This document shows positions 17,071 through 23,807 of a stretch of 64,000 bases of DNA, piece after piece. The stretch lies in the NCBI GenBank assembly GCA_030980935.1, contig GCA_030980935.1_3059.1; one strand, 5' to 3'. Origin of the DNA: a phage. The stretch's first letter is position 1. Each line of letters starts with the position of its first letter. The notes under the pieces are model-generated. The model worked only from the letters and a program-made list of their open reading frames with translations. It was not told where the DNA came from and did not search any database. A program made the translations under genes and the position numbers.

Positions 17071-19248
17071 TTAGGCCGCAAGGGCCTTCATAGTTTTAGC
17101 GATTTGAGAAACTTCATCATCACTTAAAGAGTTGCGATAACCGATGAAGTCGGAAACAATACGGAATTTCTTGGTAAACTCAGCAACCATTTTATCACTA
17201 TTTTTTGAAGCATTATTTGACAATACATCAAAAAGATTAGTTACTGTCCAGATGTCATGACCGATGGTACCTTTTCCACCGTTGAAATATATGCCCTGTA
17301 ATGAACTAACCATATTACCAAGGCGAGTATATTCTTCAGAAACTTCATCTACACTGAAGTACTTCATCATAAAATCTAGTTCAGGATACTTAATAATTTT
17401 ATCAATATATCGTTTAGCTGAACTTGAATAACCTACATACTTATCATAATCTACAGCATCAAAAGCATCTACATATAAATCACGCAGAGTTTCAAAAATA
17501 CATTGGCACTGACCGAGTTCTTTTACCTTTTTCTGTAAAAGCGGACGAATAACATAAAATTCATTAATGCCAATAAGATTAGCCATACGAATCAAAATAT
17601 TCATAGATGGATGACAAAGTGATGTAGTACCATCCATAGAGAAAATATCAGAACGATGCATATACGCTACATAACCAGTAATTTCATCTGCTTCTGACGT
17701 AAGTGTAAATAATTCCTCTTTTTCCCAACGCCCATCTTTAATTTCAAACTTAAATGCTGTAGCAGCTTTAGGACGAGGAGCTTTACTTTTAACTACCTTT
17801 GGAATATAGCTTTTAACTAAAGCTTCAATTTCTGACAAATAATGAATGTTAACTTCATCACTTTCAAACATTGCCATAATATCAGGAAGCAAATCAATCT
17901 GCGATTCTACTTCTGGATTAATAAACAGAAGGCGTTCGTTGTGATGAATATTCAAAGTGTTATTAAATTCACTATCATCTAACGCATGTGCTAATCCACG
18001 GACAATATTAACACGATTTTTAATATTATCAATAACGATATTAATTTTTGTTGTATTAATACCAAACAGACGATAACTTGATGCAACGGCTGAAGTTTCA
18101 TGGCTTTGCTTAATGCGTTTCAGTCGAGGGTCAAGATTTACTTCATACACAACTCCTGCATTGCATAACTTACTGTCAGGTTCAAACATGCTCTGCATTT
18201 TCTTATATGACAGATTTTTAGTCGTGAATTTGACTGAATTACTAATCATATAATCTCGAGCAGAATACCCCATCTTCATCAATTCACGATATGTGTGACG
18301 AGGAGATGTAGATTCTTTAAATCGTTTTACATCTTCATTAAATGCTTTCTCACTAAGCTCTTTAACTCGTTCAATAATATTTTTACGAGTGCGATCATCT
18401 AATGAAAGAGCTTCACGTGATGGAGCAATATCAAGTGAACCCATTGGAAATTTAATGTAATTCACTTCATTGCGAATGCTTAGCCAGTTACGGTCTCTAA
18501 TAACACCATCGATAGGATAAACAATACCGCCATAGATAGCATATAATCCACCACGATCTGGCCAATATCTTTCTGGATTTACGCCATAATAATCATCAAA
18601 ATCCGGAAAATAATCAATTTCGCGGTCAAGACCATTAATGATAGCCAAATCTTTGAATGGTCGCATGATATAAGAAACTTCATAAGCAAAGTTTCTAAAG
18701 TCTTTTTCTTCAACTGGAACTACGATTTCAATACCAGTTTTATCATTTGGACCCATTTCTTTTACGAATGTAGGTTTAATTTGTGGACCATCGCCATCCA
18801 TGTAAGCTACATAACCACGAATTTCACCTTTATGATACGAAGTAATACTAAACGTATCAGTATAACTAAACGGAGATTTAGAACCTAAACCAAATCCGCC
18901 AATAAAGTCATTAGATTCAGCCTTAGATGAACTGAAGTATGAATTATACAAACCAGGAGAATTATCATCACCCTGAATATCAAAATCACTCATACCCGGA
19001 CCAAAATCTCGGCAAACAAATCGTGGATCTAAACGTCCAGGAACTTGAATGATAAATTTTTCAGGATTTCCATTGAGAGCATGGGCATCAATCATGTTGG
19101 TAATCAATTCACGAACAACTGCGCGAATCTTATTTGTATACAAATCAGATGACAGAATTTTAAATACTTTAGGATTTGCTGCGATGCTAAATGCTTTTGA
19201 TTTAGAACCATTGCCAAGAATTGTTTCTTTTTCAGTGGTGATAATCAT
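17071..19248 (-). CDS. rIIA: rIIA protein
   Basis: 725 aa as T4 rIIA; GHKL-ATPase-like N-terminus. Confidence 0.9.
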
Positions 19249-19516: not shown

Positions 19517-21337
19517 TTACTGGCTCATCCATTCTTTACGAAGGTCAGCATTATCTCCCATGAGCATTTCAAAAAGCTCTTTCCAGTTCTCAGGAAGTTT
19601 AACAACATCATATACTGGATTTTGAATCATCTCACGATATTCAGATTTTTCCAAAGAGCCAAGTCCTTTAATATAACGGATGCTATGTTTAGGTAGAGCA
19701 TCTTTGGCACTCTCATATTCAGCGACTGTATAAAACCATTCTTGTTTTTTACCGACCTGAGCGATGATTACAGGAGTTTTGACAAAGCGAATTCGTCCTT
19801 GCTCAAACAGTTCTGGCCAATTACTAAAAAATCCGAGCAGAGAAGGATAAATGCTTCCTAGACCATCATGGTCAGCATCAGTCATAATAGCAATATTATG
19901 ATAATTCAAGTTTTCAGCTTTTTCACCGAGAACTAATCCAGTGATTGCGCAAATATCAAATAGTTCTTTGTTTTTAAGCATATCTGCATAAGACATACCC
20001 CAACTGTTGAGAACTTTACCACGCAATGGATAACCACCATGAAGTTCTTTATCACGAACATCAATAAGATATCCGATAGCAGAATCACCCTCAGTCAAGA
20101 AAAGAGTAGTATCAGCATCTTTACCACAAAGATTCGCTTTAATATGTTTATGAACCTTAGCTTTAGAAGCCTTTTTAGCTGCTTTAGTTTCTGCTGCTTT
20201 TTCTGCCGCTAATTTACGAGCCAAGGCAGCTTCAATAATTGGCATTAAAATTGCTTCATTGTTTAAAATAGCGCGTGAAATCTTTTTAGCATCAAGTTGA
20301 ATATGACTACGAATTTCACCAAATGGAGAAGTCAAACGCTCTTTAGTTTGAGAATCAAATCGCATGTTTTTCATATCACGAACAAACATAACGATAGTCA
20401 AACATTCTTTAACACGTGCTTTAGTTACATCAATTTTGAACTTACGTTTGATTTGTGGAATAAGGTCTTCACAAATATCATCCATAACACAGTCAATGTG
20501 ATGGCCACCATTCTTAGTATGAATATTATTGACGTACGTCAACTGACGAAAACCATCCGGTGAACGACCAACCGCAATAGAACAATTTTCTTGTTCTTGA
20601 ACGATAGCATGTTCATCATACTGTCGTGCGTATTTCTTAAAATTGCCCTGAACCTTTTTACCATTAAAGGTAAATTGAATATCAGGATAAACAACAGCAA
20701 GTGTCTGGAGACGATCTAGTGTAATGTCAAGATAAACTTGGGACAGCTCATTAGTTTCAAATGACATAAAATCTGGAATGAAAGTAACACGAGTTCCTTT
20801 CCATTTTCCAGGAATAGTTTCCCAGGATTTATTTTCCATGCCATTTGAACAACGAACTACAATATTATTTTGACCATCGCCAGTTTCACCGACAAACATC
20901 ACAGAAAAAATGTTAGTTAAACTAGAACCAACACCATTCATACCACCGGTGACACGTTCTTTATCATCACCAAAGTTACCACCCGCTTTTGGAATAGTCC
21001 AAGCAGCAACTGGACCAGGAATTTCTTCACCGGTAGGTGTTTTAACCATCGCTTGTGGAATACCGCGACCGTTATCTTCAACTGTTACCTGATTATTTTT
21101 AATGGTAACATTAATTTTATTCGCGAATTTAAACTTAGTACGAATACCTTCATCGACTGAGTTATCGATAATTTCATCAATAAGCTTAACAAGACCAGGT
21201 ACATACTGAACACTTTCCCATTTACCAAACAGAAAGCGCTCATGCATTTCATTAGCAGAAGAGCCAATGTACATGCCACTACGCTTTTTGATATGTTCAA
21301 TATCGCTCAGAATTTTAATTTCATTCTTAATCATCAC
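19517..21337 (-). CDS. 39: DNA topoisomerase II large subunit gp39, unsplit form (gene 39 plus gene 60 equivalent)
   Basis: 606 aa with GyrB-like ATPase N-terminus and Toprim C-terminus in one ORF; likely start is second Met (21334). Confidence 0.9.
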   Translation of the reverse strand: MMIKNEIKILSDIEHIKKRSGMYIGSSANEMHERFLFGKWESVQYVPGLVKLIDEIIDNSVDEGIRTKFKFANKINVTIKNNQVTVEDNGRGIPQAMVKTPTGEEIPGPVAAWTIPKAGGNFGDDKERVTGGMNGVGSSLTNIFSVMFVGETGDGQNNIVVRCSNGMENKSWETIPGKWKGTRVTFIPDFMSFETNELSQVYLDITLDRLQTLAVVYPDIQFTFNGKKVQGNFKKYARQYDEHAIVQEQENCSIAVGRSPDGFRQLTYVNNIHTKNGGHHIDCVMDDICEDLIPQIKRKFKIDVTKARVKECLTIVMFVRDMKNMRFDSQTKERLTSPFGEIRSHIQLDAKKISRAILNNEAILMPIIEAALARKLAAEKAAETKAAKKASKAKVHKHIKANLCGKDADTTLFLTEGDSAIGYLIDVRDKELHGGYPLRGKVLNSWGMSYADMLKNKELFDICAITGLVLGEKAENLNYHNIAIMTDADHDGLGSIYPSLLGFFSNWPELFEQGRIRFVKTPVIIAQVGKKQEWFYTVAEYESAKDALPKHSIRYIKGLGSLEKSEYREMIQNPVYDVVKLPENWKELFEMLMGDNADLRKEWMSQ

Positions 21338-21387
21338 TTATCCTCGTTTGGTTTCGGGAATATTATACTCCGGTAATCATAAAGCTA

Positions 21388-21403
21388 AAGGCCCGAAGGC
21401 CTT
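21388..21403 (-). other. UUCG-tetraloop hairpin
   Basis: AAGGCC-CGAA-GGCCTT followed by T-run. Confidence 0.5.
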
Positions 21404-21676
21404 TTATTTAAAACGAATAGTTGAATCCTTAAAGAACAGCCCAGAACATACTGTTCCTTCTACTTTCTGCCCGGTAGGTCCAATAGCACGAAATCCAGTA
21501 TGCTGGAAATCATTTTCAGAGCAACCGAACCAATTATATCCAGTGATTTCAATATTAGTAAAACCACTTGAAGACAAAACTTTGGTTGCATTATCAGCAT
21601 CAGTACATCCTACTAAAGATACTGCTAATACTAATGCCGCGATAGAACGATTAACATATTTCATAATTTCACTCAA
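21404..21676 (-). CDS. Putative lipoprotein
   Basis: Signal peptide with lipobox LVGC; about 60-aa mature part with 3 Cys. Confidence 0.5.
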   Translation of the reverse strand: MSEIMKYVNRSIAALVLAVSLVGCTDADNATKVLSSSGFTNIEITGYNWFGCSENDFQHTGFRAIGPTGQKVEGTVCSGLFFKDSTIRFK

Positions 21677-22040
21677 ATTTAATGGCTTGAAGGAGACTAA
21701 TAATTCTCAAGCGACTTCTTTCATCTTTAACTGTAAAAGAAAGAGGGTCACCAGATTTCATAGTGATAGTGCATTCAAAATCAAAATCTTCTGTGACTTC
21801 TTCAAAGAAGTCAAATTCTTCATCATAAATTAGAACATTACTCTGAAAACTGTGAAGAATTTTTCCATCATTTCCGGATGCTGTACTAATCATTGTAACA
21901 TTATGACCTTTCATATCTTCAACGATAAATTCGCTTGTAGATATTACAGCATTAATAGAACCATTCCTATAAATAGCAGACATTAGATATTTCTTTTCTT
22001 CGCCTTTGCGAATACGATACTTCTTACCGATTTTAAACAT
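21669..22040 (-). CDS. Hypothetical protein
   Basis: 123 aa ORF, acidic C-terminal half. Confidence 0.5.
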   Translation of the reverse strand: MFKIGKKYRIRKGEEKKYLMSAIYRNGSINAVISTSEFIVEDMKGHNVTMISTASGNDGKILHSFQSNVLIYDEEFDFFEEVTEDFDFECTITMKSGDPLSFTVKDERSRLRIISLLQAIKFE

Positions 22041-22042
22041 AA

Positions 22043-22219
22043 TTATCCTTTAAGTAAGTCGTAAAATCCGCCATTCACATGCTTAGGAGCAGAAGGCCGA
22101 CGAGTAGACAAACGATGACATTTAGGGCAAACATCATTTTCTCGTTCAGAAATCTTTTTAATTTTTTCATATTCATGCCCGCAGTCTTCAGATTGGCATT
22201 TATAATCATACATTGGCAT
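22043..22219 (-). CDS. FmdB-type zinc-ribbon protein (58 aa)
   Basis: MPMYDYKCQSEDCGHEYEK...CPKCH, CxxC...CxxC signature; below track cutoff. Confidence 0.5.
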   Translation of the reverse strand: MPMYDYKCQSEDCGHEYEKIKKISERENDVCPKCHRLSTRRPSAPKHVNGGFYDLLKG

Positions 22220-22875: not shown

Positions 22876-23145
22876 TTAATTAAACATTGGAGCGATACGT
22901 TTCAGAAGAGTAGCAGCACCTTTAGCGAATTTTACATCATGAAAAACAGTTTCTTCTTCTGTAACAACTCGAACTTTAATATTTTCACAATCCCAATTTT
23001 TACGAACAATCTTCAAAAGCTGCAGTAAATCTTTACATTCAGCAATATCGATAACACATCCACGAGAATCTTCCATTATCGCACGATAACCGTAAGCCAT
23101 ACCATAATCGTTAAAAGATTGCTCGATGATAATTAAGTTTTCCAT
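22876..23145 (-). CDS. Hypothetical protein (89 aa)
   Basis: Track start MENKM is a TTG artefact; true ATG in GGAGAATAAAATG downstream of promoter cassette. Confidence 0.5.
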   Translation of the reverse strand: MENLIIIEQSFNDYGMAYGYRAIMEDSRGCVIDIAECKDLLQLLKIVRKNWDCENIKVRVVTEEETVFHDVKFAKGAATLLKRIAPMFN

Positions 23146-23240
23146 TTTATTCTCCAAGTTGTTTTCTGTATCAGTAGTTGATATTGATATAGTACCATAA
23201 TCAACTACTGATGTATATAGTTTTATGAAAAAAATTTAAA
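23146..23240 (-). promoter_or_regulatory. Early promoter cassette (PeSL-like)
   Basis: Repeat copy; ends in GGAGAATAAAATG. Confidence 0.5.
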
Positions 23241-23734: not shown

Positions 23735-23807
23735 AGTTATCTCTCACTTGTTAAAAAGATTTTATACTCCACGGGACCATTATACTCTGGTCCCAAGAGT
23801 TTGTAAA

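Follow-up and report, generated by a model that had tools for sequence, protein, structure and literature searches.

The window, i.e. the whole 64,000-nucleotide stretch of phage DNA analysed here, derives from a T2-type Tequatrovirus, and between goF and the gene of the fused 60+39 topoisomerase it carries three consecutive small open reading frames (ORFs), all encoded on the minus strand (Table 1). They code for a 58-aa zinc-ribbon protein (39.2), a 123-aa protein and a prolipoprotein (39.1), and over this 39.1–39.2 interval the closest record is that of Shigella phage SHBML-50-1, with 98.4% identity by megablast. Transcription runs from high to low coordinates, passing goF, 39.2, the 123-aa ORF, 39.1 and a hairpin before gene 39 is reached. 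A preliminary description of this DNA had located the three ORFs correctly but had called them downstream of gene 39; lying at higher coordinates on the minus strand and being transcribed before gene 39, they are upstream of it. goF is immediately upstream of 39.2 in the same transcription unit, and the early unit as a whole reads motB-cef-goF-39.2-ORF-39.1-terminator, with the three small genes at its 3′ end.

Table 1. Coordinates of the genes and sites in and around the 39.1–39.2 interval (window numbering)
Feature	Coordinates	Strand	Basis
rIIA	17071-19248	minus	ORF list
rIIA.1 (within window)		minus	
Fused 60+39 topoisomerase gene, 606 aa	19517-21337	minus	
Middle-promoter-like site, gene 39	21362..21389	minus	MotA-box-like TTTAGCTTTA 21389-21380, 12-nt spacer, TATAAT 21367-21362
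Hairpin AAGGCC-UUCG-GGCCUU	21387..21404	minus	Fold −10.7 kcal/mol
39.1 orthologue, 86-aa prolipoprotein	21404..21664	minus	T4/phrog_902 match, family alignment, dN/dS, AF2 model
123-aa gene, RB32ORF005c/RB69ORF005c type	21669..22040	minus	phrog_622, tblastn, dN/dS
39.2 orthologue (NwgI), 58-aa FmdB-type zinc ribbon	22043..22219	minus	Pfam, TIGR02605, identity to T4
goF, 141 aa	22222..22647	minus	Syntenic goF annotation in PP01, RB32 and T4; phrog_622 1.1e-41
cef, motB, dexA (within window, as goF)		minus	
Sigma-70-type promoter-like site TTTACA-17-TATAAT, 11/12 matches	23779..23807	minus	Consensus scan; upstream of motB

The genes are tightly packed. Both the goF/39.2 and the 39.2/123-aa ORF junctions read ...AAGGA-TAA-TT-ATG with a gap of 2 nt each, and the 123-aa ORF/39.1 junction reads GAG-TGA-AATT-ATG with a gap of 4 nt. 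The close packing had been noted before, together with overlapping stop and start codons, and this overlap disappears when the start of 39.1 is corrected: the mechanically called ORF (21404-21676) gives 90 aa from a TTG codon, but the true start is almost certainly the ATG at 21664, since this is the annotated start in the T4, PP01, RB32 and HP3 orthologues, giving an 86-aa product. A plus-strand ORF of 188 aa (21267-21833) was rejected as spurious, being antisense to conserved genes and unannotated in the related records inspected.

Starting on the final base of the stop codon of 39.1, the hairpin is likely the intrinsic terminator of the early unit. Its z-score is only −1.5, so the fold by itself is weak evidence; its sequence is identical in T4, fPS-90 and PP01, and a terminator is annotated at the equivalent position in the fPS-90 record. 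The 3′ side of the hairpin is overlapped by the MotA-box-like TTTAGCTTTA, which, going by the MotA-box consensus of T4 applied by eye, we take to belong to a middle-promoter-like element of gene 39; the fPS-90 record has a predicted middle promoter annotated at the equivalent place. At the other end of the unit, the sigma-70-type site before motB, which is the best one upstream, is a candidate for its early promoter. Sigma-70-like sites found in the region by the consensus scan do not exceed the number expected from shuffled sequence, and an early promoter upstream of motB is annotated in the fPS-90 record.

By megablast, the interval was found in 521 phage records, 419 of which cover at least 80% of it, and all three genes are already annotated in hundreds of T-even genomes, i.e. 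they are catalogued early genes of the T2/T4-type coliphages. The annotated loci of T4, PP01, fPS-90, T2, HP3, RB32 and Mosigvirus Shf125875 were compared, and pairwise dN/dS values were computed against T4, T2, PP01, fPS-90, HP3 and RB32. These were 0.00–0.19 for 39.1, 0.10–0.36 for the 123-aa gene (intact copies only) and about 0.1 for 39.2, the latter even between allele classes separated by a dS of about 1. All three are real genes and are under purifying selection. Searched by sequence against solved structures, the three proteins yielded nothing below E=0.1. What the genes are, their orthologues and families, the export signal and lipobox, the selection on them and their distribution come from the present analysis; the GroEL role of 39.2 is taken from the literature, and we infer the functions given for 39.1 and the 123-aa protein.

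The preliminary description had found no confident match to T4 39.1 or 39.2 and had proposed a comparison of the 39-goF interval among T-even phages. When this was run, with T4, T2 and RB32 among the phages, two of the three proteins did match (98% identity to T4 gp39.1 and 81% to T4 gp39.2), and the 123-aa gene proved to be absent from T4 and present in T2 and RB32. Accordingly, conservation as core T4 genes with established roles does not apply to all three, since a function is known for only one of them and another is missing from T4.

The 123-aa gene is likewise absent from fPS-90 and BF15, and in these phages, as in T4, 39.1 directly follows 39.2. Using tblastn, the protein was detected in 578 phage records, in 418 of them at 80% identity or higher (including T2, RB32, PP01 and HP3), and 157 Mosigvirus records carry a protein of 33–37% identity. 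Given this wide presence in Tequatrovirus and Mosigvirus, T4 is the exception. The RB32 copy is annotated as “similar to RB69ORF005c”, and in Shf125875, the one Mosigvirus record inspected, the position between 39.2 and gene 39 is likewise taken by a 141-aa relative. The two types share 37% identity over 98% of the length (tblastn), or 44% in a MAFFT alignment; they differ in that the Mosigvirus protein is longer and that no 39.1 follows it in Shf125875.

Described before as acidic, the 123-aa protein does contain one strongly acidic stretch, YDEEFDFFEEVTEDFDFE, but is only mildly acidic overall (pI 5.5, 20 D+E versus 17 K+R) and is rather a relative of GoF. It matches phrog_622, the PHROG family also matched by GoF, over its full length (2.4e-29), and both proteins match phrog_13003 (annotated goF), 3710, 5347 and 24808; a match to Pfam FRD2 was weak (0.017) and below the cut-off. 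The alignment of the two proteins is colinear, proceeding from an N-terminal domain through an FF(D/E)EV motif (FFEEV in the 123-aa protein) and an acidic linker to a small C-terminal beta-beta-alpha domain. Compared with GoF, the protein is shorter (123 versus 141 aa), its linker is much shorter and its identity is only about 21%.

GoF itself belongs to the GoF/Frd.2/MotB.1 “LSm-like fold” family described by Kim et al. 2025 (PMC12152347), a paper in which the 123-aa gene is not mentioned. By fold, a member of this family is expected to have a bent N-terminal beta-sheet of five antiparallel strands, joined through a linker to a C-terminal domain. In the AF2 model of the 123-aa protein (pLDDT 65), strands were predicted at residues 7-10, 38-44, 47-53 and 79-81 with low-confidence gaps, along with the C-terminal beta-beta-alpha; the five-stranded barrel is not clearly visible in this moderately confident model, i.e. 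the predicted fold of the family was not confidently recovered. Against BFVD, the model matched only uncharacterised 120–160-aa proteins of T4-like phages (best 1e-6), and against PDB folds it gave no significant match.

Direct comparison of the 123-aa family with GoF by hhalign was not significant (E of 0.1 and 0.023), the profiles being shallow and built of near-identical sequences, and the paralogy with GoF therefore rests on the PHROG profiles. The alignment-seeded protein search listed close relatives of the seeds only. One might suppose that the 123-aa ORF has no kinship with GoF and arose separately as an ORFan, the two having been lumped by PHROG clustering. The hhalign values would agree with this, as would the pairwise BLASTP result (E=0.058 at 21% identity), the low confidence of the model at residues 27-34 and 54-66 and its want of a significant PDB match. 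We nevertheless hold such a separate origin to be rather unlikely, because the five PHROG profiles hit the two proteins in the same N-terminal part, the independent goF-annotated family does so at similar E (8.8e-7 versus 1.4e-6), the weak FRD2 match points the same way, the colinear layout is shared, and within one transcription unit only 39.2 stands between the two closely spaced genes. Thus, the 123-aa protein is quite probably a paralogue within the GoF/Frd.2/MotB.1 family.

Kim et al. report that no activity is known for wild-type GoF and that a reporter RNA is stabilised by the D25Y variant, GoF(D25Y), alone (PMC12152347). Literature searches found no experiment on the 123-aa protein. 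In line with what was proposed for GoF, it may be an RNA- or protein-binding modulator, which would act post-transcriptionally or by protein binding early in infection and would be non-essential.

The lipoprotein matches phrog_902 (1.6e-37) and, judged by its sequence, is the orthologue of T4 gp39.1. The two genes are alike in position, in the identical mature domain and in the terminator downstream; they differ in that the window gene is preceded by the 123-aa gene and by a weaker Shine-Dalgarno sequence (GAG versus AAGGG). Of the seven phages compared, six have the same mature chain, among them T4, T2, Yersinia phage fPS-90, HP3 and RB32, and that of PP01 differs by a single V/I change. The precursor, which begins MKYVNRSIAALVLAVSLVGC and continues with TD..., has the features of a bacterial lipoprotein, namely an N-terminal positive region, a hydrophobic stretch and a lipobox of the form [LVI][ASTVI][GAS]C. 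A signal peptide of residues 1-19 is predicted, with cleavage before the C of the lipobox LVGC (nt 21605-21616), which had already been recognised, leaving a 67-aa mature chain that starts at the lipid-modified Cys.

In the family alignment, Cys20, Cys48 and Cys73 are nearly invariant. Among the 195 family members surveyed, 150 have a strict lipobox, most of the rest show a near-lipobox with its Cys at the same position, and a few carry a transmembrane anchor instead, so that the domain appears always to be extracytoplasmic. The spacing of the Cys pair is 25 residues in 92 of the 112 three-Cys members, and Cys48 and Cys73 probably form a disulfide. In E. coli, a lipoprotein without Asp at position +2 is sorted to the outer membrane. 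The +2 residue of gp39.1 is Thr, and outer-membrane sorting is accordingly predicted; where the lipobox is recognisable in other family members, Thr or Ser stands at +2 in nearly all cases, and Asp is absent from the +2 residues tabulated for the family. In the AF2 model (pLDDT 78), a single helix packs against an antiparallel sheet of four strands, and comparison of the model with PDB folds gave no significant match (all E>1). The closest resemblance in topology, to YpmB (PepSY-like), was not accepted as evidence, the TM score being only 0.38–0.40.

The gp39.1 family is large. At E≤1e-3, a profile search collected 2,217 representatives, of which 1,108 remained at E≤1e-10, and tblastn found the family in 1,071 phage records; most of these are from Straboviridae of enterobacteria, but Stenotrophomonas phage Yut3, phiMAM1 (Ackermannviridae) and a jumbo phage of 270 kb are also among them. 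Family genes were also located between a Q-antiterminator-like gene and rdgC in a temperate-phage-like contig, and on a phage-like Shinella plasmid; ten distant representatives that were looked up were all metagenome singletons. A single-protein search of representative bacterial genomes gave no relative, no Pfam or NCBIfam model covers the protein, and literature searches found no experimental paper on gp39.1 or a relevant T4 lipoprotein. In phiMAM1 the homologue is immediately followed by a GP17 superinfection-exclusion gene and by one with a Lar domain, which is the only contextual hint on the role of gp39.1.

From these features, gp39.1 would be exported by Sec, lipid-modified and cleaved at Cys20, and then sorted by Lol to the inner leaflet of the outer membrane, where its 66-residue domain, one helix on a four-stranded sheet and probably disulfide-bonded, would face the periplasm. 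There we infer that it may bind a conserved envelope component of the infected cell, e.g. sealing or protecting the envelope against a secondary attack, rather than mask a specific receptor. gp39.1 may have an exclusion or envelope role.

Receptor masking of the T5 Llp or Cor type is the alternative to be weighed for gp39.1, i.e. a superinfection-exclusion lipoprotein that binds the phage's own outer-membrane receptor, blocks adsorption and protects progeny. T5 Llp is a small lipoprotein whose activity depends on a disulfide. gp39.1 resembles such proteins, by functional analogy only, in being a small phage lipoprotein that is predicted to be in the outer membrane, is early by its position in the early unit and has a Cys pair consistent with a disulfide, and the GP17 neighbour of the phiMAM1 homologue would also suit an exclusion function. 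T4 and T2 use different receptors, OmpC/LPS and FadL/OmpF, respectively. A receptor-specific binder is expected to covary with its receptor, yet the mature domain of gp39.1 is identical or nearly so in T4, T2 and the Yersinia phage, and such masking is unlikely because the mature sequence is essentially invariant in phages with different receptors. Neither a Pfam/NCBIfam match to a known exclusion lipoprotein family nor a significant PDB fold match was obtained, and gp39.1 showed no similarity to Llp or Cor in sequence or in fold. Taken together, we regard Llp/Cor-type masking as distinctly improbable, and a conserved envelope target as the better guess for gp39.1.

For 39.2, the zinc ribbon MPMYDYKCQSEDCGHEYEK...CPKCH that had been recognised as FmdB-type was confirmed at scores above the gathering cut-offs of both Pfam Zn_ribbon_8 (PF09723; 45.7 versus 34.4 bits, E 6.7e-12) and TIGR02605 (FmdB family; 44.9 versus 31.3 bits, E 8.7e-12). 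The two knuckles, C8-x4-C13 and C31-x2-C34, are invariant in every copy aligned, the tail SAPKHVNGGFYDLLKG is conserved and the C-terminal 16 residues are invariant. Apart from its T4 counterpart, the protein is 100% identical to those of PP01 and T2 and 93% identical to that of Mosigvirus Shf125875, an RB69-type allele. The gene directly follows goF in all loci examined. On the basis of full-length high identity and the conserved position between goF and gene 39, the protein is the orthologue of T4 gp39.2/NwgI, with which it shares the length of 58 aa, the position, the four Cys and the C-terminal motif; unlike T4, the window carries the other of two allele classes, with 11 residue differences and a synonymous divergence of about 1.

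The name NwgI was given to 39.2 by Ang & Georgopoulos 2012 (Genetics 190:989), whose work is summarised in PMC4396842 and PMC5153855. According to these summaries, gp39.2 shifts GroEL to an open conformation, in which GroES and phage co-chaperonins are bound, T4 deleted for 39.2 does not grow on specific groEL mutants, and the GroEL phenotypes come from gp39.2 alone in the published assays. By orthology with the T4/RB69 protein, the cytoplasmic zinc ribbon of the window phage would bind or otherwise act on host GroEL, shifting it to its open state, in which either GroES or gp31, the co-chaperonin of the phage, is accepted, and this action may secure folding of the major capsid protein on hosts with suboptimal GroEL. 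The window allele is here assumed to be as active as that of T4, despite differing at 11 of 58 residues.

Many GenBank records instead name gp39.2 an FmdB-like transcriptional regulator, as does PHROG 1076, and membership in the FmdB/Zn_ribbon_8 family gives this name its ground. The name is, however, an inherited label of a family that is defined by the zinc ribbon only, the 58 residues leave no further DNA-binding domain, and the only experimental work on gp39.2, as summarised in PMC4396842 and PMC5153855, indicates GroEL/GroES modulation, so a regulator function is highly improbable. The preliminary description had further remarked that small zinc ribbons and envelope lipoproteins of early regions are often anti-host or exclusion factors. 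These are indeed accessory, non-core early genes and 39.2 is, by orthology, host-modulating, but the published role of the T4 zinc ribbon is GroEL modulation rather than exclusion.

The gene contents of related phages do not hold the three genes together as an accessory block. T4 has 39.2 and 39.1, T2-type phages have all three, and Shf125875 has 39.2 and the ORF005c type with no 39.1 in the interval. Moreover, 39.2 exists in two deeply diverged allele classes, which assort independently of both other genes and whose occurrence is not tied to that of the 123-aa gene; a link between the 39.2 allele type and the 123-aa gene was considered and rejected, as RB32 and HP3 carry the T4-type allele plus the 123-aa gene. 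The three genes are gained and lost independently and form no functional module, and the supposed block consists of independent small early genes of the kind filling the T-even early regions. That they would make up one cooperating system, e.g. a module serving exclusion or acting against the host, with the envelope lipoprotein as the partner of the zinc ribbon and the acidic protein in the cytoplasm, is suggested by their adjacency on one strand at 2–4 nt, by the shared terminator and by an arrangement conserved in about 420 records, but it is scarcely credible against the loci of T4, fPS-90 and BF15 without the middle gene, the Shf125875 locus without 39.1, the quite different contexts of 39.1-family genes in other phages, the free assortment of the 39.2 alleles and, in the assays summarised in PMC4396842 and PMC5153855, the GroEL phenotypes yielded by gp39.2 on its own.

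The reading that we favour, with a probability of roughly 0.8, is thus that of three independent small early genes, co-transcribed with goF and ending at a hairpin terminator, of which 39.2 is the NwgI orthologue, the 123-aa gene is probably GoF-like and 39.1 encodes a predicted outer-membrane lipoprotein. There is little new in the locus itself, and 39.2 already has a published function. What the analysis contributes is that erratic database names (“XRE regulator”, “kilA anti-repressor”, “heat shock protein” and “FmdB-like transcriptional regulator”) are corrected and that the T2/RB-type 123-aa gene is placed, at the strength given above, in the GoF family. The exception is gp39.1, an invariant and widely distributed phage envelope lipoprotein, and the function of its family is the only question worth pursuing here. 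We put forward, tentatively, that it represents a very large phage-borne outer-membrane lipoprotein family, with more than 2,000 clusters at 50% identity and outside all Pfam and NCBIfam models, whose periplasmic domain might target a conserved Gram-negative envelope machine; if this is true, gp39.1 would stand for a novel class of factors that exclude superinfecting phages or take over the envelope.

The small zinc-ribbon gene 39.2 was found to fall into two allele classes, one shared by the window, PP01, T2 and the Mosigvirus copy and the other by T4, fPS-90, HP3 and RB32 (compared over loci L001-L006 and L011), with a synonymous divergence of ~1 and a dN/dS of ~0.1 between the classes. The flanking lipoprotein gene 39.1, unlike the two-class 39.2, is near-identical in all phages compared, which makes this a sharp mosaic boundary within a 900-bp interval.

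Features of the window, with coordinates and strand
Feature	Coordinates	Strand	Remark
Gene 39, fused 60+39 form	19517-21337	−	606 aa from GTG
188-aa ORF	21267-21833	+	antisense to the gene 39 start, to 39.1 in full and to the 123-aa gene at its 3′ end
39.2	22043-22219	−	
93-aa ORF	22876-23157	−	phrog_3720 match, 1.7e-46; between cef and motB

The fused gene 39, which lacks mobA and the gene 60 split, resembles in this the gene of T2, RB32 and RB69 but not that of T4, and its product is probably 605 aa, starting at the next ATG after the GTG. The 93-aa ORF has copies in PP01 and T2 and no annotated counterpart at the T4 locus; it is a further T2-type gene absent from T4. In the phage T2 copy of the 123-aa gene, the GoF-family candidate (AP018813, L004:1831-2202), a frameshift occurs near codon 105, and a 105-aa product is therefore annotated in that record; this represents either a pseudogene in that T2 stock or a sequencing error. 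The plus-strand 188-aa ORF is annotated in none of the related records inspected and is presumably spurious.

The GenBank product names for three of these genes are not reliable: 39.1 is labeled "XRE family transcriptional regulator", "heat shock protein" or "putative peptidase inhibitor", 39.2 "kilA anti-repressor", and cef "cytochrome C biogenesis protein CcmE".

Elsewhere, the 39.1 family varies in architecture and in context. Among P0231, P0214, P0240 and P0244, one member has the 39.1 domain twice in tandem, and an N-terminal transmembrane anchor replaces the lipobox in the three others. In Serratia phage phiMAM1 (region L010:3959-5104), the 39.1-family gene MAM_100 comes immediately before genes for a superinfection-exclusion protein of the Pfam GP17 family (1e-34) and for a protein that has a Lar restriction-alleviation domain. 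On the metagenome contig SRR7479610_947 (L008:1993-5480), a 39.1-family lipoprotein is flanked by a Q-antiterminator-like gene and rdgC, with an S24 repressor nearby; therefore, temperate-phage-like genomes also carry the 39.1 family.
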